64,000 nt of DNA from Escherichia coli (GTDB taxonomy: Bacteria > Pseudomonadota > Gammaproteobacteria > Enterobacterales > Enterobacteriaceae), in assembly GCF_022846255.1 (NCBI RefSeq), contig NZ_AP025682.1; one strand, written 5' to 3'. Made by a program: the position numbers and the translations under genes. How positions within the stretch are numbered: the first letter of the stretch is position 1; every line of letters begins with the position of its first letter. Under the pieces are notes generated by a model. That model was not told the DNA's origin. It did no database searches and saw only the letters and a program-made list of their open reading frames with translations. Of this stretch, positions 1-63,661 are shown in pieces.

Positions 1-1115
1 TGCGGTGTGCGGGTTTTCTCGCTCCATTCCATCGCCTGGTGACCGCCGTCGTAACAGGAAATATAACAGCGTCCACAGCCAACACATTTATCAAGATTGA
101 TATGGGGATAGACAATATAACTGCGGTCTAAATCTTCCGCCGGGACAATATTGTGATTCGCCAGACCCACCATCTCCTGCAACGAATCAAACCCTTGATC
201 GGCGAGATAATGCGACAACCCGCTTGCCATATCTTCCACTATCCGATACCCGTACTGCATAATGCCGGTGGTCACCTGCAACGTTGCTGCGCCGAGCAAT
301 AAAAACTCCGCCGCATCTTCCCAGGTTTCAATGCCGCCGATACCGCTGATCGGGAAATCGTGCAGTTCTGGATGGGTGCGCATTTGCTGAATAAAGCGTA
401 GGGCGATCGGTTTTACCGCTTTACCGGAATATCCGGAAATACTCGATTTACCGTTAACGATCGGCATACCAATTTTCTGATTAAGATCGATATTGGTGAT
501 GGATTTAACGGTGTTAATCGCCGCAATGCCATCTGCGCCGCCGCGCTTCGCCGCCAGCGCCACTTCGCACATATCACCAATATTCGGCGTCATCTTCGCC
601 AGCATTGGCAGCGTGGAACCACGTTTTACTGCCCGACAATATTTTTCTACCAGCTCCGGGCTTTGCCCGACATCGCTACCCATCGCATGAGAAGTCATTT
701 GCGGACAGGAGAAGTTACACTCGATCATATCCGCGCCAGCTTCTTGCACCAGACGCGCCAGCTCTTCCCATTGCTGCTCATTTTCGCCCATGATTGAAGC
801 GATCAATACTTTGTCCGGATAATCTTCTTTCAGCCGACGCAGGGCGGCCAGATTCTCTTCCAACGGATGTTCAGCAATCTGCTCCATATTTTTGAAGCCG
901 ATAAAACCGGTATCTTCTTTCACCAGATGATCAAAACGCGGCGAGACTTCGTTGGCGATAAAAAAACCGATCGTTTTAAACACCACGCCGCCCCAACCTG
1001 TGTCGTAGGCTTTGGCACACATCTCATAGCAGTTGCCTACCGGTGAAGAAGAAAGGCAGAACGGGTTAGGAAACTTCACGCCGCAAAAGGTAATCGAAAG
1101 ATCTTTCGTTAACAT
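1..1115 (-). CDS. preA: NAD-dependent dihydropyrimidine dehydrogenase subunit PreA (N-terminal portion; C-terminus lies beyond window start)
   Basis: Minus-strand frame opens with ATG at complement 1113-1115 ([19 protein letters not shown]...) and stays open to position 1; start overlaps preT stop (ATGTTAA). Recognised as PreA/YeiA. Confidence 0.85.
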
Positions 1116-2347
1116 GAGCAAGCTCCCTCTAAATAGTGATGAATCGCCTCGGCGGCTTCTTTCCCGGTTTTCACTGCATAGACCACGGTTTTGTCACCCT
1201 CAACAATATCGCCAGCAGCAAAGACTTGCGGGTCGCGGGTCTGGTAATTTTGCGTTTCGATGGTGTTACGCTGCGGCTCTAACTCCGCAAAGGCATCCAG
1301 TCTGGCATGCTGACCGATGGCGAGAATAATTTTATCTGCCGCCATCGTCAGTTCGCCCGGTAACCGTACATGCTTAAACGTGACTTTATTGCCTTCCACG
1401 GCTACTGGTGTAAATCCATCGATGATCGAAACGCCCAGCTCTCTGGCGCTGGTAAACTCTTTTTCGCTTGCCGGAAACTCATCTAACTCTTCACGCGCTA
1501 CGCAGGTTACCGCCTGACAGCCGAGAACTTTCAGCGTGCTGGCTACGTCCATCGCGACATCACCGCCGCCGATAATTAATGCACTTTGTGGAATGCTGAT
1601 ATCGCCTTGCGCCTGTCGTGCACGTTGCAGGAAGTCTACGGCAATCTCAACGTCGCTATGCTCAAACAGCGATAACCCGGAACCGCTCGATAACCCTACG
1701 GTGACCAGTACCGCGCGGTTTTCCGCTTTCAGCTGCTCCAGGGTGAGTGTTTTACCGATTTCGTTATTGCACTTAATGGTCACGCCCATTTTTTCTATAC
1801 GGGCGATTTCTGCATCCAGCACCGATTGCGGTAACCGGAATTGCGGAATGCCGTTACGCAACCAGCCACCGGGTTGTGCTTCTTTCTCATAGATCGTGAC
1901 GTCATAACCCTGGTTTGTCAGCGTCACACTGGCCTGCAATCCGGCAGGACCTGCGCCAATAATGGCGACTTTGCCGAGCGTTTTAGTACCGGGCAGATAA
2001 ATTTCCATCCCAGTTTGTTGTTCAAAATCAGTAACAAAACGCTGTAAGCGACCGATATCAATGGGAGCATCAACACCGGCACGTGTACAACCGCTTTGGC
2101 ATAATTTCTCCGTCGGGCACACTCTGGCACAAACGGCACCGAGGGCATTATTTTCGCGAATTGTCTCGGCAGCGCCTTTAAAATTACGAAAGTAGATTGA
2201 GCGAATAAATTTCCCCGGATCGGTCTGTGCCGGGCAAGCCTGACTACAGGGAGCGTCATGACATAATAAACAGCGAGAGGCTTCTTTAATCGCCAGTAAA
2301 GGCGTAAAAGCCGGAGTGAGTTCATCCAGATAATTTTGTTGCGGCAT
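1109..2347 (-). CDS. preT: Dihydropyrimidine dehydrogenase subunit PreT (FAD/NAD-binding, 412 aa)
   Basis: ORF track 1109..2347; translation [14 protein letters not shown]... recognised as PreT/YeiT; Rossmann GxGxxG (IIGAGPAG) visible. Confidence 0.92.
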
Positions 2348-2540
2348 GTGATCTTCCTTAATGCTATGAGTAATTAAGGCGAACGCTAAATAAATATTGC
2401 GTGCTGATATTAAGGCTATGCGCGTGGGGAAATTTAAACTGTGAAAGGATTCACAAATAGCTGCGGTTCAGAATGTGATATCCGCAGCTTATTGAGTGAA
2501 GTAATAATTATTCTCAATAATTAACAGAAAAGGGAAAATA

Positions 2541-4536
<1,996 letters not shown>

Positions 4537-6945: not shown

Positions 6946-7332
6946 TAGTGGAATCGCAGTTTATCAGAGACAATGAATCGCTTATTCAGCTTCATCATCT
7001 TGTTGCGCTCCTTTCATGAGCTAAGCCACATATTGCCACTGGCGCAAGGAGCGCGCAGGGGGAGGACAATCGCCTCCTCCCCCTGCACCCCCGGGCTCTG
7101 GCGAACAAAATCGCCGCTGCGCGGTACCTTCAGCTTATCCCCTTCGTCTACCGGGTCGGGCGCGAGGTAACGTCCTTGTAAGACGCGCCCTCAGCCCACA
7201 TCCATGTGGGCTGCCCCGGCCTTCGGGGAACGCTTCAGCGATTTTGACGCCACCAACACCGGAGCTGTTTGCAAATCAAGTACACAAAATATCTAGTTCC
7301 TGACCTGACAACTTATATGCCATATCTGATTT

Positions 7333-7416
7333 TTAAAATATCATCTTAAATACGCCAGTCACCACCAGTAGCCCAATCAGGAAAATAATCAATACAGCCC
7401 AGAGTATAATTTTCAT
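7333..7416 (-). CDS. yohP: Small membrane protein YohP (27 aa)
   Basis: Reverse complement of 7333..7416 translates MKIILWAVLIIFLIGLLVVTGVFKMIF*, a single TM helix recalled as the K-12 small protein YohP; below the ORF-track size cutoff. Confidence 0.7.
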   Translation of the reverse strand: MKIILWAVLIIFLIGLLVVTGVFKMIF

Positions 7417-7639
7417 TGGCGTTCCTTTATTTGTGAGTGCTGAATAAGTATAGGAAAAAACGAAGCCCTTTGCCGTTATCCATAAACGATTAAGATAAAT
7501 CGGAAGATATCATTCACTTAGTGTATATTTTTCTGGATATGTCGTTTTATTGCTACTGATGTATTGCCACGCGAAACTAAAAAATATATCGCAACACACG
7601 GTAATCTCCGCGCACCTTTTCTTACCTGATTATTCCCCC

Positions 7640-9076
7640 ATGAATCGTGATTCCTTTTATCCCGCCATCGCCTGTTTTCCGCTGTTACTGATGCTGGCCG
7701 GGTGTGCGCCTATGCATGAAACCCGCCAGGCGTTAAGCCAGCAAACGCCCGCTGCACAAGTTGACACCGCATTACCCACGGCGCTGAAAAATGGTTGGCC
7801 AGACAGCCAATGGTGGCTGGAGTATCACGATAATCAACTCACTTCCTTAATTAACAATGCACTACAGAACGCACCGGATATGCAGGTGGCTGAACAGCGC
7901 ATTCAGCTAGCTGAAGCCCAGGCGAAGGCAATTGCTACTCAGGATGGTCCGCAGATCGACTTTTCTGCGGATATGGAGCGGCAAAAAATGTCGGCAGAAG
8001 GCTTAATGGGGCCGTTTGCTCTGAACGATCCGGCCGCAGGTACGACCGGTCCGTGGTACACCAACGGAACTTTTGGCTTAACGGCGGGCTGGCATCTCGA
8101 TATCTGGGGAAAGAATCGGGCGGAGGTTACTGCCCGCCTGGGTACGGTTAAAGCACGGGCGGCGGAACGCGAGCAAACCCGCCAATTGCTGGCTGGCAGC
8201 GTAGCCCGCCTGTACTGGGAGTGGCAAACCCAGGCGGCGTTAAACACGGTCTTGCAGCAAATAGAAAAAGAGCAGAACACCATTATCGCGACCGATCGCC
8301 AGCTATATCAGAACGGGATTACTTCTTCAGTTGAAGGTGTGGAAACCGATATTAATGCCAGCAAAACCCGGCAGCAGCTCAACGATGTCGCGGGGAAAAT
8401 GAAAATTATTGAGGCACGGTTAAGCGCACTTACAAATAACCAGACAAAGTCATTGAAGCTTAAACCGGTCGCGTTGCCGAAAGTGGCAAGCCAGCTTCCT
8501 GATGAACTGGGGTACTCCTTACTGGCCCGGCGGGCAGATTTGCAGGCGGCGCACTGGTACGTTGAGTCATCGCTAAGCACCATTGATGCGGCAAAAGCGG
8601 CATTTTATCCTGACATCAACCTGATGGCCTTCCTGCAACAGGATGCGTTGCACTTAAGCGATCTGTTCCGTCATTCCGCGCAGCAAATGGGCGTTACGGC
8701 AGGCCTGACGCTACCCATTTTCGATAGTGGTCGTCTTAACGCCAATCTCGATATCGCAAAAGCCGAAAGCAACTTGTCTATCGCCAGCTACAACAAAGCG
8801 GTGGTTGAAGCGGTGAATGACGTGGCGCGGGCAGCCAGTCAGGTTCAGACACTTGCGGAGAAAAACCAGCATCAGGCGCAAATTGAGCGCGATGCCTTGC
8901 GTGTGGTAGGTCTTGCGCAGGCGCGCTTTAACGCGGGCATCATTGCTGGTTCCCGCGTCAGCGAAGCCAGAATCCCGGCGCTGCGTGAGCGGGCCAATGG
9001 CCTGTTATTGCAAGGGCAGTGGCTGGATGCTTCCATTCAACTCACTGGTGCGTTGGGCGGGGGTTACAAACGCTGA
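7640..9076 (+). CDS. mdtQ: Outer-membrane efflux lipoprotein MdtQ (OprM/TolC family), apparently intact (478 aa)
   Basis: ORF track 7550..9076; start placed at MNRDSFYPAIACFPLLLMLAGC (7640), a lipobox; single uninterrupted frame. Confidence 0.85.
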   Translation: MNRDSFYPAIACFPLLLMLAGCAPMHETRQALSQQTPAAQVDTALPTALKNGWPDSQWWLEYHDNQLTSLINNALQNAPDMQVAEQRIQLAEAQAKAIATQDGPQIDFSADMERQKMSAEGLMGPFALNDPAAGTTGPWYTNGTFGLTAGWHLDIWGKNRAEVTARLGTVKARAAEREQTRQLLAGSVARLYWEWQTQAALNTVLQQIEKEQNTIIATDRQLYQNGITSSVEGVETDINASKTRQQLNDVAGKMKIIEARLSALTNNQTKSLKLKPVALPKVASQLPDELGYSLLARRADLQAAHWYVESSLSTIDAAKAAFYPDINLMAFLQQDALHLSDLFRHSAQQMGVTAGLTLPIFDSGRLNANLDIAKAESNLSIASYNKAVVEAVNDVARAASQVQTLAEKNQHQAQIERDALRVVGLAQARFNAGIIAGSRVSEARIPALRERANGLLLQGQWLDASIQLTGALGGGYKR

Positions 9077-9128
9077 TGATATGCGCCTTCTATACTTAAC
9101 GTTTATTCAGCGTTAAGTGGAGAACTCG

Positions 9129-9890
9129 ATGGCACAGGTTGCGATTATTACCGCCTCCGATTCGGGGATCGGCAAAGAGTGCGCGTTATTACTGGCGCAG
9201 CAGGGGTTTGATATTGGCATTACCTGGCACTCAGATGAAGAAGGGGCAAAAGATACCGCGCGTGAGGTAGTTAGCCACGGCGTACGTGCGGAGATCGTGC
9301 AGCTGGATCTCGGTAAACTGCCAGAAGGTGCGCAGGCGCTGGAGAAACTCATTCAACGGCTGGGGCGTATTGATGTGCTGGTGAATAATGCGGGCGCAAT
9401 GACCAAAGCGCCGTTTCTTGATATGGCTTTCGATGAGTGGCGCAAGATTTTTACCGTTGATGTCGATGGTGCATTTTTATGCTCACAAATTGCGGCCCGC
9501 CAGATGGTGAAACAAGGGCAGGGCGGTCGCATCATCAACATTACGTCGGTACATGAACATACGCCGCTGCCGGATGCCAGCGCTTACACAGCCGCTAAAC
9601 ATGCGCTCGGCGGGTTAACCAAAACGATGGCGCTGGAGCTGGTCAGGCATAAGATTTTGGTGAACGCAGTCGCGCCTGGGGCGATCGCCACGCCAATGAA
9701 TGGCATGGATGACAGCGACGTGAAGCCCGACGCGGAGCCTTCGATTCCTCTGCGGCGTTTTGGCGCAACGCATGAGATTGCCAGCCTGGTAGCGTGGCTG
9801 TGCTCAGAGGGCGCAAATTACACCACCGGGCAGTCGTTGATAGTGGATGGCGGCTTTATGTTGGCGAATCCGCAGTTCAACCCAGAATAG
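9129..9890 (+). CDS. yohF: Short-chain dehydrogenase/reductase YohF (253 aa)
   Basis: ORF track 9117..9890; start at MAQVAIITASDSGIGK; SDR cofactor motif and YxxxK catalytic motif (YTAAK) present. Confidence 0.88.
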   Translation: MAQVAIITASDSGIGKECALLLAQQGFDIGITWHSDEEGAKDTAREVVSHGVRAEIVQLDLGKLPEGAQALEKLIQRLGRIDVLVNNAGAMTKAPFLDMAFDEWRKIFTVDVDGAFLCSQIAARQMVKQGQGGRIINITSVHEHTPLPDASAYTAAKHALGGLTKTMALELVRHKILVNAVAPGAIATPMNGMDDSDVKPDAEPSIPLRRFGATHEIASLVAWLCSEGANYTTGQSLIVDGGFMLANPQFNPE

Positions 9891-18938: not shown

Positions 18939-19857
18939 ATTTAGCCATGTCAGCAAACTGATCGGCGCACAAAAAGCCGTTAACGATCTCAATCTCAATT
19001 TTCAGGAAGGGAGTTTTTCGGTGCTGATTGGCACATCTGGCTCCGGCAAATCCACCACCCTGAAAATGATTAATCGCCTGGTGGAGCATGACAGCGGCGT
19101 GATCCGCTTTGCCGGAGAAGAAATTCGTTCGCTGCCAGTGCTGGAGCTGCGCCGCCGGATGGGCTATGCCATTCAATCTATTGGCCTGTTTCCCCACTGG
19201 AGCGTGGCGCAAAACATTGCCACCGTGCCGCAATTACAAAAATGGTCGCGGGCGCGGATCGACGATCGTATCGACGAATTAATGGCGCTGCTGGGGCTGG
19301 AGCCGGATTTGCGTGAGCGTTATCCGCATCAGCTTTCCGGCGGTCAGCAGCAACGTGTGGGAGTGGCCCGCGCGCTGGCTGCCGATCCGCAAGTCTTGCT
19401 GATGGATGAGCCATTCGGCGCACTGGACCCGGTAACGCGTGGCGCGTTGCAACAAGAGATGACGCGCATTCACCGTTTGCTGGGGCGCACTATTGTGCTG
19501 GTCACTCATGATATTGATGAGGCGCTACGGCTGGCAGAACATCTGGTATTGATGGATCACGGTGAAGTGGTGCAGCAGGGCAATCCGCTGACGATGCTGA
19601 CTCGTCCGGCGAATGATTTTGTTCGCCAGTTTTTTGGACGTAGTGAACTGGGTGTGCATCTGCTTTCGTTACGTAGCGTGGCGGATTACGTGCGCCGTGA
19701 AGAACGGGCTGAAGGTGAGGCACTGGAAGAAAGGATGACGCTACGCGATGCGCTCTCCCTGTTTGTTGTGCGGGGATGCGAAGTGCTGCCGGTGGTGAAC
19801 ACGCAGGGGCAGCCTTGCGGCACACTGCATTTTCAGGATCTACTGGTGGAGGCGTGA
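18931..19857 (+). CDS. yehX: ABC transporter ATP-binding protein YehX
   Basis: ORF track 18931..19857; Walker [13 protein letters not shown] signature LSGGQQQR, Walker B LLMDEP. Confidence 0.92.
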
Positions 19858-19861
19858 GTGT

Positions 19862-20593
19862 ATGAAGATGTTGCGCGATCCGCTCTTCTGGCTCATTGCT
19901 CTGTTTGTGGTGCTGATTTTCTGGCTACCCTATAGCCAGCCGCTGTTCGGTGCTTTATTTCCGCAGCTGCCACGGCCCGTTTATCAGCAAGAAAGTTTTG
20001 CAGCTCTGGCGCTGGCTCATTTCTGGCTGGTGGGGATCTCAAGTTTGTTTGCTGTAATTATCGGCGTTGGTGCCGGAGTTGCCGTCACTCGCCCGTGGGG
20101 AGCAGCGTTTCGCCCGATGGTAGAAACCATTGCCGCCGTTGGGCAGACTTTTCCACCTGTAGCGGTGCTGGCGATTGCCGTTCCGGTGATGGGGTTTGGT
20201 CTGCAACCGGCGATTATCGCGCTGATCCTTTACGGCGTGCTACCCATCTTGCAGGCGACACTTGCCGGGCTGGGAGCGATTGATGCCAGCGTGACAGAAG
20301 TTGCGAAAGGTATGGGAATGAGTCGTGGTCAGCGACTGCGTAAGGTCGAGCTACCGCTGGCGGCTCCGGTGATTCTGGCGGGCGTGCGAACTTCGGTGAT
20401 TATCAACATTGGTACGGCGACGATCGCCTCAACGGTAGGGGCCAGCACGCTGGGTACGCCGATCATCATCGGGCTTAGCGGATTTAATACCGCGTATGTG
20501 ATCCAGGGGGCGTTACTGGTGGCACTGGCGGCGATCATCGCAGACCGCCTGTTTGAAAGGCTGGTGCAGGCGTTCAGCCAGCACGCAAAATAA
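19862..20593 (+). CDS. yehW: ABC transporter permease YehW
   Basis: ORF track 19862..20593; membrane permease. Confidence 0.88.
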
Positions 20594-20681
20594 AGGTATA
20601 ACCTGCGAGCATGACGCCACCAATTCCGCCTAACGCCATAAACAGGAACAGGGCGATGACCCCAATTTTAGCTATGCGCAT
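20574..20681 (-). CDS. yohO: Small membrane protein YohO (35 aa)
   Basis: Reverse complement of 20574..20681 translates [35 protein letters not shown]; recalled as the K-12 small protein YohO; 3' end overlaps yehW 3' end by about 20 bp. Confidence 0.65.
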
Positions 20682-20740
20682 AATGCACTCCTTATGTTAA
20701 CGAAAGGATTGTACAGTAAAGCGCATTTGTTAACGAATCA

Positions 20741-21472
20741 TTAAATGCCGAGTGGGAAAATATCATGGCCTTGTTCCTGCCAACTGGTGAGTTGCTGCTG
20801 TTGGGCAGAGGTTCGATTTTCACCGCACCACACCAGCAATGTACGGCCTTCGAACAGTTCAGGGCGTAGTTGATTGAGCGAGTGAGCGAGGACATCAATG
20901 CGCCATCCTTGTTGACTGGCAATCCAGCCCTCCAGCCACAGACGGGTGGTATCGTGAATATTCCAGCCAACCACCAGCGCATCTTTACCCTGTTTTTTAC
21001 GTGCCGAAGCCAGACAAATGGCGATGTAGTTGATCAGTACGCCGTCGAGGATCGCCAGCAGCGCCTGGAGAGTCGGTTGTTGGCACTGAAGCCGTCGGCG
21101 CAGAGGAATAAACAGATGTGTGGTGAGTGTCTGGGCGGGGTAATCCTGACCGCGCTCTTTGATCCACGTTCGCAGGCTATGCAGATTGCCGCTTTGCAGG
21201 TAAGTCAGTAATGTTTCTTGCTGATCGCGCCAGCCGTTCTGCACATCAACATTTTCATTACTGAGCAGCATTTTTACTTTGCTGACCTGCACGCCGTTGT
21301 CGATCCAGCGTTTGATCTCGCGGATCCGGTCAATATCGGCATCGTTGAACAGCCGATGACCGCCGTCTGTCCGTTGTGGTTTCAGCAATCCGTAACGCCT
21401 CTGCCACGCGCGTAACGTGACAGGGTTAATATCACAAAGCAACGCCACTTCACCAATTGTGTAAAGCGCCAT
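20741..21472 (-). CDS. mlrA: MerR-family transcriptional regulator MlrA (csgD activator)
   Basis: ORF track 20741..21472; N-terminal MerR HTH (MALYTIGEVALLCDINPVTLRAWQRRYGLL). Confidence 0.9.
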   Translation of the reverse strand: MALYTIGEVALLCDINPVTLRAWQRRYGLLKPQRTDGGHRLFNDADIDRIREIKRWIDNGVQVSKVKMLLSNENVDVQNGWRDQQETLLTYLQSGNLHSLRTWIKERGQDYPAQTLTTHLFIPLRRRLQCQQPTLQALLAILDGVLINYIAICLASARKKQGKDALVVGWNIHDTTRLWLEGWIASQQGWRIDVLAHSLNQLRPELFEGRTLLVWCGENRTSAQQQQLTSWQEQGHDIFPLGI

Positions 21473-31996: not shown

Positions 31997-32177
31997 CCAG
32001 ACCGTTGGGACGTTGCGCCGGATCGAACCTATTTCAAGTCCTGGCTACCGGACGGGTGGTGCTGCAGGTGGTGCCCTGATCCGGAGTGCAACATCGTGGT
32101 CCAACATACGTAAACCAGTATCGACAGGCAGTGTAAGGGTAAGGTGCTGGTGTTGCGCTCCTTAATAAGGAGAGCGG

Positions 32178-32267
32178 ATGGACACGCTGACACAAAAGTT
32201 AACCGTGCTCATTGCTGTACTGGAGCTATTAGTGGCTCTGTTACGGTTGATTGATTTGTTGAAGTAA
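32178..32267 (+). CDS. zorO: 29-aa hydrophobic type I toxin candidate (ZorO-like / TisB-like)
   Basis: ATG at 32178 preceded by SD TAAGGAGA (32166-32173); product MDTLTQKLTVLIAVLELLVALLRLIDLLK is a single amphipathic/hydrophobic helix with a basic C-terminus; predicted 5' UTR of about 174 nt; own terminator follows. Gene name assigned from memory of the Zor-Orz family, not verified. Confidence 0.6.
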   Translation: MDTLTQKLTVLIAVLELLVALLRLIDLLK

Positions 32268-32290
32268 CGGGCAAATTGAAACGCATCTAA

Positions 32291-32319
32291 GGGGGAATAC
32301 CGTTTCCCCCTTTAATAAA
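32291..32319 (+). terminator. Intrinsic terminator of the small toxin gene
   Basis: ggggga-ataccgtt-tccccc hairpin followed by tttaataaa. Confidence 0.6.
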
Positions 32320-32507
32320 GCTATACTCGCCATACTTCAAGTTGCATATGCTGCGACTTGAAGTATGATGAGTATATTATTCTATTTCTTGGTTGAATAT
32401 ATTCTGTAGTTCACAATTAAAAATTGCTATTACAGTTTCATGTGATTCACCTCGTAATTTCCGCTCATCAATAAACTCATCTCTTGTATAAATCAACGCA
32501 TCATTTA

Positions 32508-36395: not shown

Positions 36396-39300
36396 TTATT
36401 CAAACAGGGCTTCAATATCGTTAATTAGCTCGCTGGCGGTGATGGCATCGAGTACGGAGAACTGCGCTTCCTGTGTTGAATTACTCCCCCAGCCATAGCT
36501 TTCCGCTTTGCCTTCCCATAGCCACAGCTTGCTTAAGAGTTGCTCGGCACTCAGTTCGGCTGGCGACATGCCTACCGCAAAACCTTCATCGATTTCCATG
36601 ATTAACGACCAGCGGCCCAGGGGGTTGATCATCCAGCCGATCCAGCCAGCATCCTGCGGGGTGCCCTTTATCCAGCCTTTATTCGCCAGCCCCATTATCC
36701 GACCACTCGGGCATTTTCTGCCTGTCCAGCGTGTCAGTTCGCTGGCGTTGCGCTCGGCTTCTGTCAGCGCGTAACTGTTACGATCAAGCTGGCGGAACGG
36801 TGGTAACAGTTCGTAGTCGGCAAAAAGCTGCCCGAAGGCGGCAGCATCCGTCGGTGATATTTCCAGAACGTGAGGAATACCAATAGAGATATCGCCTTCC
36901 GGCAGGGTGAAAAGATCATCGTCAGCGGTGCTGTAGCTGTTATCTTCCGCTACGCGAAAGCAAGCCAGTAGCTGGTTTTCGGCGCTATAAACGCCCCAAA
37001 TCAGACGGCGGGTTAAGTGGCGGACCAGCGGATGCTCAACCAGGAAGAGCTGAAAGTTTTCCGGTGACCAGCGGCGACGCAGGCACATGGCGGATTCCAG
37101 CCTTGCTACCTGCTGGGCGGCGACGGTACGCGCATCTTTTTTCAGCAATTTGTAGCGGTTAACAGCATCGTTCGCCTGTGATTCATCATCGCTTTTGTTT
37201 GGTTTGGGCAGGTCTTTCAGACGACTGCCGGAAGCGTCACGCACAAACGGTTTTAAGGTTTCATCAAAGCTGACGGTGAACTGGCGTGGGCCGAAATCCA
37301 GCAACAACGAACCATTATCATCCAGACCGAGATCCGGTGCTAACCGATCTTCAAGCTCCGCCACCGTGAGTTCGCGGCTCTCGGCAATGTCGGCAATTTT
37401 TTCTTTTGCCCGCTCCTGTAATGCTTTGAATTTCAGTTTCTGGGCGATGCCGTTAAGCTGCATCAGGGCGATATCACTACCGATAGCAGCGAGAATATCC
37501 AACCCGACGGTGGCGCGTTTATGCTGGGATTCACCAGGCCAGGCGCGAATCAAAGGCGTCAGTTTGCGGGCGGTGTCATCGTTACCGAGAACGCCTAACG
37601 CAGTGAACGCCCAACTCTCTTTCGACGGCGCGCCAGCGGTCTGCCAGGCGGTAAACAGATCCCAGGCAAATTCAGCCAGTGAGTCGGCGGTACAGGCATC
37701 TTTCACCTGCAATAATCCCGGATACAGCGCCTCCTCCTGATGGAAGCGGAGCATTTCACCGAGGTGCTGGAGTGCGCTATCGGGCAGTGATTGGGCGTTT
37801 GCTTTTAATACCGGGCGGTTCCAGAGCGATGGCTGATAAAAGGCCGGAAGAGTGGGGATTTTTGTCGGGTGATTATCTAAGGGATCGAGCGCAAGCAGAG
37901 CGTTCACCGCGTCTGTTACTTCCGGCTGGTTATAACGCCGGGCGATTTCTTGCAGTAATGGCTGATGACCGTTTTCGGTAAGCATACGCAAGGCAGCGCG
38001 GGCGTTATCCTGGGCTTCACCGGCTTTGCCGAGCGCCGCAGGCAGCAGGCCGGTAATGGCGTGTTCCGGGTATTTCAGCAGCCAGATACGGGCATCTTGT
38101 CGTAGGGTTTTGAGTTTGTTGAAGGCGCGGGCGACGGCAGGTGCCAGCTCACTCGCTGCGAAGTAATTCGTTATGGGCAAGGCTTCCTGTGGATAGCGTG
38201 CAAGTGAGTTTACTAACCCAGGTAATCCTTTGAGTCCAAAATGTAACATGGCGTATTCGGTATCGGTATGCGGAGATAGAGTAAGGGCATTCCATGCTCT
38301 TACTGCTTTCTCCAGCGGCAATGTTGTCAAAATCCCCAAATGCCAATAATGCCCGGTAGGTGAATGAAACACCTTAAATTCACTTATTAAAGTTGAATAA
38401 TCTTCATTTAGCCATGCCTCAACTACCGCTTCGGGAGCTTTAATATATGTACCAGCGATCCGTCGTTGAAAACCCATCCTTGCCAACAGATTGGCAGTAC
38501 TTTCTTCATGACTAACCGTGATGTGTTTTGAATACCAGATATATTTCGCCAAAAGTTGATTACTGATTTCTTCTGTCAGATAACTGATTGGCTCAATACC
38601 TAATGGTGCTAAATCAAGCACTGGAATCGGCGATTTTTTCTTTTTCGAAAGCCATGGTGGGGAGACTACTATGACCGGCAGTAGATCGGCGCTGGCATGG
38701 TTTGAGGGCTGTGTCAGTTGTTGCTGGCATGATTTCAGCACTGCAACTGCGGGTGTCGAAAGCCAGGGAATGACCTGTTCTGCTAGTGTCGGTTGCGAGA
38801 TAAGCATCGTCATTAGCATAATGCGCCAACTATTCTCTTCTTTTTGCACTAGAAGTTCCGCCAGTGCTGCCAGTGCTGCGTGTGGGAACGCAGCGCAGGC
38901 TTTCGTCATTCGATCGTGACAGCGTTTAGTATGCCCGGCTACACGTATAAGCAGTGTTAATGCGAATGGATGATTGATATGACGCAACACATCGGCGCAG
39001 TAGTCACTTGCGACATAGGGAGCAAATCGGGGCAGGGCCGCAACACCTTGCTCCTGTAATACGGTGGCTGACCATATCGCACCACAATAGTAATCATCAA
39101 AAATGGCATATGGCTCGTGATATTTTTCTAATGAGGCAAGAATGTGCTCATCAGTCGCCACTATTTTTAGCCACTCAAGCGAGGGTAATTTCTTTTGCCC
39201 CAGTAGACGCTGGGCAATTTCATGTGCAATTTCTGGTTTTTCGGGTAATAACAAAGCAATTAATGGTTGCCGCCATTCTGGAATATGTGGAACTGCGGCA

Positions 39301-62305: not shown

Positions 62306-63661
62306 ATGTTTTCAGAAGTCATGCGTTATATTCTCGACCTCGGCCCTACGGTGATGCTGCCGATTGTCATCATTATTTTTTCTAAAATATTAGGCATGAA
62401 GGCAGGCGATTGCTTTAAAGCGGGTCTGCATATCGGGATTGGCTTTGTTGGCATTGGCCTTGTGATTGGCTTAATGCTGGATTCCATTGGCCCGGCGGCG
62501 AAAGCGATGGCGGAAAATTTCGACCTGAATCTGCATGTGGTCGATGTCGGCTGGCCGGGCTCTTCACCCATGACCTGGGCGTCGCAAATTGCGCTGGTGG
62601 CGATTCCGATTGCGATTCTGGTTAACGTGGCGATGTTACTGACCCGTATGACGCGGGTGGTAAATGTTGATATCTGGAATATCTGGCATATGACCTTCAC
62701 CGGCGCGTTGCTGCATCTGGCAACCGGTTCATGGATGATAGGGATGGCGGGTGTGGTTATTCACGCGGCGTTTGTTTATAAACTCGGCGACTGGTTTGCC
62801 CGCGATACCCGAAATTTCTTTGAGCTGGAAGGAATTGCTATTCCGCACGGTACATCGGCGTATCTGGGGCCGATAGCGGTGCTGGTGGATGCTATCATCG
62901 AGAAAATCCCAGGGGTTAACCGTATTAAATTTAGTGCCGACGATATCCAGCGCAAATTTGGTCCTTTTGGCGAGCCCGTCACCGTGGGTTTTGTGATGGG
63001 ACTGATTATCGGCATCCTCGCGGGTTACGATGTCAAAGGTGTATTGCAGCTGGCGGTAAAAACGGCGGCAGTTATGCTGCTGATGCCACGGGTGATTAAA
63101 CCCATCATGGATGGTTTAACGCCCATCGCTAAGCAGGCCCGTAGTCGTTTACAGGCGAAGTTCGGCGGTCAGGAGTTCCTGATTGGCCTTGATCCGGCGT
63201 TGCTGCTGGGACATACGGCGGTGGTATCGGCAAGCCTGATTTTTATTCCACTCACCATTTTAATTGCTGTTTGTGTGCCGGGTAATCAGGTGCTGCCGTT
63301 TGGCGACCTTGCCACCATCGGCTTCTTTGTGGTGATGGCGGTCGCGGTGCATCGTGGAAATCTGTTCCGCACCTTAATTTCGGGTGTCATCATTATGAGC
63401 ATCACCCTGTGGATCGCGACGCAAACTATTGGTTTGCACACCCAACTGGCGGCTAATGCGGGCGCGTTAAAAGCCGGGGGTATGGTGGCTTCAATGGATC
63501 AGGGCGGTTCTCCCATTACCTGGTTACTGATTCAGGTTTTCTCCCCGCAAAATATTCCCGGTTTCATTGTTATCGGCGCAATTTATCTTACCGGTATTTT
63601 CATGACCTGGCGTAGAGCGCGTGGCTTTATTAAACAAGAGAAAGCCGTTCTCGCAGAATAA
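62306..63661 (+). CDS. gatC: Galactitol PTS enzyme IIC permease
   Basis: ORF track 62306..63661; polytopic membrane protein, 451 aa. Confidence 0.92.
   Translation: MFSEVMRYILDLGPTVMLPIVIIIFSKILGMKAGDCFKAGLHIGIGFVGIGLVIGLMLDSIGPAAKAMAENFDLNLHVVDVGWPGSSPMTWASQIALVAIPIAILVNVAMLLTRMTRVVNVDIWNIWHMTFTGALLHLATGSWMIGMAGVVIHAAFVYKLGDWFARDTRNFFELEGIAIPHGTSAYLGPIAVLVDAIIEKIPGVNRIKFSADDIQRKFGPFGEPVTVGFVMGLIIGILAGYDVKGVLQLAVKTAAVMLLMPRVIKPIMDGLTPIAKQARSRLQAKFGGQEFLIGLDPALLLGHTAVVSASLIFIPLTILIAVCVPGNQVLPFGDLATIGFFVVMAVAVHRGNLFRTLISGVIIMSITLWIATQTIGLHTQLAANAGALKAGGMVASMDQGGSPITWLLIQVFSPQNIPGFIVIGAIYLTGIFMTWRRARGFIKQEKAVLAE

Follow-up and report, generated by a model that had tools for sequence, protein, structure and literature searches.

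An intact mdtQ gene for a predicted TolC-family outer-membrane lipoprotein in Escherichia coli and its single-base disruption in K-12

The 64-kb stretch of Escherichia coli DNA analysed here, referred to below as the window, carries an intact copy of mdtQ (formerly yohG), whereas K-12 is a natural mdtQ null that has lost one A from a run of five at codons 50/51. That the gene is mdtQ and is intact is near certain, and that its product is a working outer-membrane channel is likely; the two taken together we hold with good confidence. The intact gene is the species norm, and the result is informative about K-12 and says nothing unusual about the source strain. [quoted passage not shown] What is added here is modest: the exact lesion with evidence for a single origin, a census of alleles, an estimate of selection and the operon contexts of related proteins.

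Identification of the gene and its product

Positions 7640-9076 on the plus strand form one frame that starts with ATG and runs through 478 codons to a TGA stop (Table 1). From the base composition of the window, the chance of 478 consecutive sense codons is about 1e-10. The N-terminus of the protein reads MNRDSFYPAIACFPLLLMLAGC, followed by APMHE, and is built like a bacterial lipoprotein signal peptide: behind a short charged n-region come a hydrophobic core and then the lipobox L-A-G-C. The earlier note had described a single frame of 478 amino acids with the lipobox LLMLAGC, and both elements are borne out by our reading of the open frame, with LLMLAGC at residues 16-22, and by Cys22 (codon 7703-7705), which is invariant across a family alignment of 111 sequences. 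Cys22 is the predicted acylation site, with Ala23 at the +2 position. According to the Lgt/LspA/Lnt/Lol pathway and the +2 rule, the precursor would leave the cytoplasm via Sec, receive its lipid at Cys22 and lose the signal peptide to signal peptidase II, after which the Lol system would sort it to the outer membrane because the +2 residue is Ala and not Asp.

A mechanically generated list of open reading frames extends the mdtQ frame upstream to a TTG at position 7550, which gives a protein of 508 amino acids and is the start used in some GenBank records. This start would leave 52 residues ahead of the lipobox cysteine. Furthermore, four orthologue loci have in-frame stops upstream of the gene: those of Salmonella, Citrobacter and E. 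albertii and one on a metagenomic contig with 60% identity. Since the upstream frame is closed in all four, the ATG at 7640 is the conserved start and the TTG was rejected.

The assignment to MdtQ is based on several profile models. The NCBIfam equivalog model for MdtQ (NF008524) aligns with residues 1-478 of the protein over profile positions 1-478 of 478, with a score of 1023.9 bits against a cut-off of 650. The Pfam family of outer membrane efflux proteins (OEP, PF02321) matches two stretches with 106 bits, the best of which covers residues 69-266, and the protein passes the model for NodT-type lipoproteins (TIGR01845, TC 1.B.17) with 273.8 bits (cut-off 210). The MdtP model (NF007390) yields 356.1 bits, which is below its curated cut-off of 597, and by these scores MdtQ is a paralogue of MdtP and not a member of the MdtP group. 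The protein is identical to RefSeq WP_001078114.1 from strain 504838 and is found in exactly this form on at least 1000 contigs. At the nucleotide level, the gene is 97.4-99.9% identical to the annotated mdtQ genes in 5423 of 5426 complete E. coli genomes. The gene in the window is an ordinary wild-type mdtQ allele that is not special to the source strain.

Table 1. Positions of mdtQ, its predicted elements and the neighbouring features in the window.
Feature	Position	Strand	Basis
yohP, gene for a small membrane protein of 27 aa, divergent neighbour	7333..7416	-	annotation in strains 504838 and 95-3322; PF25659 in Salmonella
AT-rich divergent yohP/mdtQ intergenic region, presumed mdtQ promoter and 5' UTR	7417..7639	.	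sequence
mdtQ (yohG) coding sequence, 478 aa and stop; outer-membrane factor lipoprotein	7640..9076	+	open reading frame; NCBIfam NF008524; Pfam OEP x2
Lipoprotein signal peptide, residues 1-22, lipobox L-A-G-C (predicted)	7640..7705	+	sequence reading; N-terminus kept in Salmonella, Citrobacter and E. albertii
A5 homopolymer (codons K50/N51), site of the single-base deletion in K-12 (A4)	7787..7791	+	alignment with b2139
First β-hairpin of the predicted barrel (residues 105-116, 139-153), in OEP repeat 1 (69-266)	7952..8098	+	AlphaFold2, Pfam
Second β-hairpin of the predicted barrel (residues 325-336, 348-357), in OEP repeat 2	8612..8710	+	AlphaFold2, Pfam
yohF, SDR-family oxidoreductase, own GGAG ribosome-binding site	9129..9890	+	annotation in related genomes

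Predicted structure

A monomer model was generated with AlphaFold2 from the 111-sequence alignment of diverse homologues, with a mean pLDDT of 88.9 and a pTM of 0.86. The model contains four strands, which are paired in the two hairpins listed in Table 1, and helices of 35-69 residues that form long helical hairpins. A Foldseek comparison of the model with solved structures gave TM-scores of 0.75-0.87 to OprN, VceC, CmeC, CusC, SilC and OprM, and of 0.65-0.70 to TolC. The best match among solved structures in a phmmer search was VceC (1YC9), with an E-value of 1.1e-39 over residues 51-477. MdtQ is thus predicted with confidence to adopt the protomer fold of the outer-membrane factors, with four β-strands, helical hairpins and an equatorial domain. 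The proposal in the earlier note that the frame encodes a full outer-membrane factor of the OprM/TolC family agrees with the Pfam, NCBIfam and phmmer matches, the AlphaFold2 model and the Foldseek comparison.

The lesion in K-12

For the mdtQ gene of MG1655 (b2139 in NC_000913.3, 2227323-2228758, minus strand), the annotation gives a 1436-nt pseudogene, the copies in K-12 derivatives are labelled "frameshifted" in RefSeq, and a paper on YohP refers to the K-12 gene as "the mdtQ pseudogene". We aligned the window with b2139, which is the check that the earlier note had proposed. The alignment located one lesion and showed that the K-12 copy is not intact: the only indel is in the A-run at 7787-7791, where K-12 has one A fewer (A4 rather than A5). 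Past K50 the K-12 frame reads MVGQTANGG..., being shifted at codon 51, and it ends at a stop at codon 70. As read from the sequence, the lesion splits the signal peptide and lipid anchor from the whole channel body. The annotation of b2139 and its 1-bp deletion confirm the pseudogene status that the earlier note had stated. Outside the indel, there are 10 substitutions between the two copies, one of which changes an amino acid (I98V). A second lesion in the K-12 gene was considered and rejected, in that the re-framed sequence is open to the normal stop and carries this one conservative change.

To place the lesion within the species, allele queries were compared with 5426 complete E. coli genomes, any single difference bringing the identity below 99%. 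The mdtQ locus is present in 5423 of the 5426 genomes. An 81-mer with the A5 run of the window matches 3046 of them exactly, and the corresponding 80-mer with the A4 run of K-12 matches 355. Among the A4 matches listed (60 of the 355), all 60 are laboratory derivatives of K-12, and they include MG1655, DH5alpha, C600, J53, DH1 and NCM3722. An 82-mer with six A residues had no exact match among the 5426 genomes. Position 7663 is a C in the window and an A in K-12, and a chimeric query that combined the C with the A4 run also had no exact match in this set; its best matches, 99.5% over 196 bases, were A5 carriers. In the sampled genomes without an exact A5 match, the differences were substitutions across the 81-base span, the exceptions being K-12 derivatives, which span 80 bases. 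The phylogroup A relatives BL21(DE3) and ATCC 8739 have an intact mdtQ. With A4 not found outside the K-12-type background and A6 absent, these sequences speak for a single deletion in the lineage of K-12 and against a slippage-prone switch. We had considered the A-run as a site of recurrent slippage or phase variation and rejected it on the same distribution; moreover, a run of four to five bases is short for slippage. A one-base length difference in strain GZ2408C was also dismissed, as it sits in the upstream spacer and mdtQ of this strain is intact.

Homopolymers such as the lesion site are prone to sequencing errors, and it could be argued that the open frame in the window is an error of assembly or base reading and that the strain in truth has the frameshift of K-12. 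The chance of this is negligible, given that 3046 independent complete genomes contain the exact A5 81-mer, that the other non-K-12 genomes sampled differ from it by substitutions and not indels, that the exact protein recurs on the contigs mentioned above and that systematic errors are hardly expected in a run of only five bases. The statement in the earlier note that mdtQ is "intact here" stands as regards the frame. An intact copy is no distinctive trait of the strain, with the locus in 5423 of 5426 genomes and the A4 form in 355.

Selection on mdtQ

Rates of substitution were estimated by the Nei-Gojobori method with the window allele as the reference. For divergent alleles within E. coli (EC444, APEC O2-211 and O157:H7), the dN/dS ratio was 0.08-0.10, and it was 0.037 for E. 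albertii, 0.065 for Salmonella and 0.058 for Citrobacter. The orthologues in the latter three are syntenic and of full length, 478-479 amino acids. By these estimates, mdtQ is under strong purifying selection. Independent truncations have been described in some isolates of Salmonella Typhi and Paratyphi A (PMC9241588), which implies that the selection is not absolute, and the gene is dispensable in the laboratory, K-12 having no functional copy.

The earlier note had also asked whether this copy carries inactivating substitutions in conserved residues, and we found it free of them. At the 61 columns of the 111-sequence alignment that are conserved in at least 80% of the sequences, MdtQ of the window has the consensus residue in 58. 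The three departures, L222, N266 and Q333, are common to MdtQ of E. albertii, Salmonella and Citrobacter; they are traits of the MdtQ clade rather than peculiarities of the window allele, and were rejected as inactivating changes.

Genomic context and expression signals

The window is collinear with positions 2,236,379-2,172,582 of MG1655 in reverse orientation, with 95.8-97.7% identity over the 64 kb. Together with the 10 substitutions and the indel in mdtQ, this bears out the view that the source strain is not MG1655. Open frames are found in the window for mdtQ, gatC and yehH, and all three copies in K-12 carry lesions. The latter two are the remaining K-12 pseudogenes within the stretch: gatC (62306-63661, plus strand) is a single open frame of 452 codons in the window and stops at codon 311 in K-12, and yehH (36396-39254, minus strand) is a single open frame of 953 codons that stops at codon 645 in K-12. 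From the three intact genes it follows only that the DNA comes from an ordinary E. coli strain outside K-12.

None of the complete E. coli genomes was at least 99% identical over positions 1-25000 of the window, the best being 98.5%. By per-kb mismatch counts, this part of the window is a recombination mosaic. The tract at 7-10 kb, which comprises a repeat, yohP, mdtQ and yohF, has 0-1 differences per kb to strain 504838 and 16-54 per kb to strain 95-3322, and the tracts at 2-6 kb and 22-25 kb follow strain 95-3322. The segment at 19001-21000 (yehX, yehW, yohO and mlrA) is 4.3-6.2% different from all of 95-3322, 504838 and MG1655, far above its neighbours, a pattern that suggests import from a divergent lineage. 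Further along, in the gap between the yehK and yehL counterparts, a segment of about 330 bp (approximately 32037-32370) has no counterpart in MG1655, where the flanks are about 8 bp apart (2204296-2204304).

In the neighbourhood of mdtQ, dusC (+) and a repeat element are followed by yohP (-), mdtQ (+), yohF (+), yohD (-) and yohC (+). The conserved arrangement dusC-yohP-mdtQ-yohF-yohD-yohC-pbpG-dld was found in MG1655 and in strains 504838 and 95-3322. The order around mdtQ is the same in Salmonella; in Citrobacter and the E. albertii locus, mdtQ has no yohF beside it. No gene for an adaptor or transporter was found beside mdtQ in the window or in the Salmonella, Citrobacter and E. albertii loci. 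The gene is an orphan channel gene, and it is described as encoded alone in the 2025 review as well (PMC11762307).

The repeat between the dusC stop (6945) and yohP is about 270 bp long (6985-7256). It matches MG1655 2229106-2229376 in the orientation opposite to its flanks and with an identity of only 88.6%. It is a multi-copy element in E. coli, with a median of 3 places per genome and up to 8, and the whole dusC-yohP spacer in the arrangement of the window is present in only 1999 of 5426 genomes. By position and copy number, the repeat fits TRIP1c (PMC10888264), apparently inverted relative to K-12. On the upstream side of dusC, the Salmonella, Citrobacter and E. albertii loci contain an apparent cluster for gentisate or 3-hydroxybenzoate catabolism, with putative genes for an MFS transporter, a cupin dioxygenase, an FAA hydrolase, a GST-like isomerase and an FAD monooxygenase. 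In the window and in K-12, this side is occupied by yohJK-cdd-sanA.

A promoter scan of the plus strand of the 223 bp upstream of mdtQ did not find a sigma-70 consensus site, and the sequence before the ATG has no Shine-Dalgarno motif. The lack of this motif suggests that expression of mdtQ may be low or conditional. According to the review (PMC11762307), the mdtQ promoter is without experimental confirmation. In the gap of 52 nt between mdtQ and yohF (9076 to 9129), no terminator-like site was found in the scan, and the mdtQ-yohF pairing with an SDR gene recurs in Salmonella and in the 60%-identical metagenomic orthologue. Co-transcription of the two genes is possible from these signals, and it would not be obligatory because yohF is absent beside mdtQ elsewhere.

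Proposed function and alternatives

By analogy with the known channels, three MdtQ protomers would assemble into a 12-stranded β-barrel on a long α-helical periplasmic tunnel, and the tunnel would dock tip-to-tip on a periplasmic adaptor and an inner-membrane transporter, through which substrates would be expelled across the outer membrane. The earlier note had raised the possibility that the strain has a functional additional efflux channel; judged from the intact frame and the purifying selection, it may have one.

To narrow down the type of partner, we surveyed the nearest non-orthologous relatives of MdtQ, with 37-42% identity, of which four had informative contexts. Two of them (P0141 and P0143) are encoded by the last gene of operons with the order Ytca, AaeA-like adaptor, FUSC and outer-membrane factor, which is the layout of mdtNOP in E. 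coli. A third (P0139) is located behind a FUSC gene, and the fourth (P0145) lies between genes for an MFS transporter and an EmrA-like adaptor. Because the operons of the relatives contain FUSC or MFS genes and VceC is the closest solved structure, the likeliest partners would be non-RND pumps of the MdtNO, AaeAB or EmrAB type. This is a lead and not a result, and the partner assignment is much less certain than the identity, the intactness and the channel role. A more specific proposal is that MdtQ in wild E. coli may be a dedicated, TolC-independent channel for non-RND pumps that lack a channel of their own, such as the FUSC-type AaeAB and MFS-type pumps like EmrAB. We consider this rather unlikely. 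If it were true, decades of efflux genetics in K-12 may have overlooked a TolC-independent exit route, because K-12 is a natural mdtQ null.

An intact mdtQ could nonetheless be silent or redundant. As a decaying paralogue of MdtP, it would make no measurable contribution because TolC serves nearly all tripartite pumps of E. coli, and K-12 would show the first step of a loss that is neutral everywhere. The normal growth of K-12 without mdtQ is consistent with this, as are the independent truncations in Salmonella Typhi and Paratyphi A and a gene that has no recognisable promoter or ribosome-binding site and no adjoining partner genes. However, the dN/dS ratios of 0.04-0.10 in E. coli and across four genera are unlike those of neutral sequence, the length has been kept at 478-479 amino acids from E. 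coli to Citrobacter, and the one frequent frameshift at a locus that is otherwise nearly universal is that of K-12. [quoted passage not shown] If the parent of that deletion was a K-12 strain, its mdtQ carried the frameshift at codon 50 beforehand, and the phenotypes would have to be explained otherwise, such as by polarity on yohF or by an effect on yohP. On balance, we judge a silent or redundant gene to be quite unlikely.

Alternatively, MdtQ may have a role other than drug efflux, such as the export of an endogenous metabolite tied to YohF or a function as a general outer-membrane pore. The short gap to yohF with no terminator-like site and the recurrence of the mdtQ-SDR pair in Salmonella and the metagenomic orthologue would fit such a role, and the related FUSC/AaeAB-type systems handle aromatic acids. 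However, the pairing is not obligatory, as seen in Citrobacter and the E. albertii locus. Outer-membrane factors are also not known to act unless an energised partner in the inner membrane works with them, and no gene for such a partner is linked to mdtQ. We give this explanation a low probability, and an outer-membrane channel that serves an efflux pump encoded elsewhere is the reading that we prefer.

We take the TolC-family outer-membrane factors of E. coli to be four, namely TolC, CusC, MdtP and MdtQ. K-12, the reference for efflux in E. coli, is short of one of the four channels of the species through one lost base, and the K-12-based view that TolC is the only channel that matters may not fully transfer to wild and clinical strains.

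Comparison with known systems

The protein is MdtQ/YohG of E. coli (UniProt Q8X659 in O157:H7), whose length it shares and whose gene likewise lies between yohP and yohF. MdtQ has been described as one of three TolC homologues in E. coli, and an AlphaFold model of the O157:H7 protein has been superposed on TolC (PMC11762307). The closest paralogue in E. coli is MdtP (YjcP/SdsP), which is encoded in the mdtNOP operon as its outer-membrane factor and whose profile model matches MdtQ over the full length. Both are NodT-type lipoproteins; unlike mdtP, mdtQ is an orphan with no adjoining adaptor or transporter gene.

VceC of Vibrio cholerae (1YC9), the channel of the MFS-type pump VceCAB, has Foldseek TM-scores of 0.75/0.87 to the MdtQ model, with a sequence identity of only about 26%. 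In contrast to mdtQ, vceC is located in an operon with its own adaptor and pump. The other members of TC 1.B.17 that were compared, OprM, OprN, CusC, CmeC and TolC, have the same protomer architecture as the MdtQ model, with two repeats that each contain a β-hairpin and long helical hairpins. The TM-scores of OprN, CusC and OprM to the model are 0.75-0.85, while the sequence identities of the five proteins to MdtQ are 12-23%. OprM, OprN, CusC and CmeC serve RND pumps, whereas TolC serves many pump classes and is not a lipoprotein.
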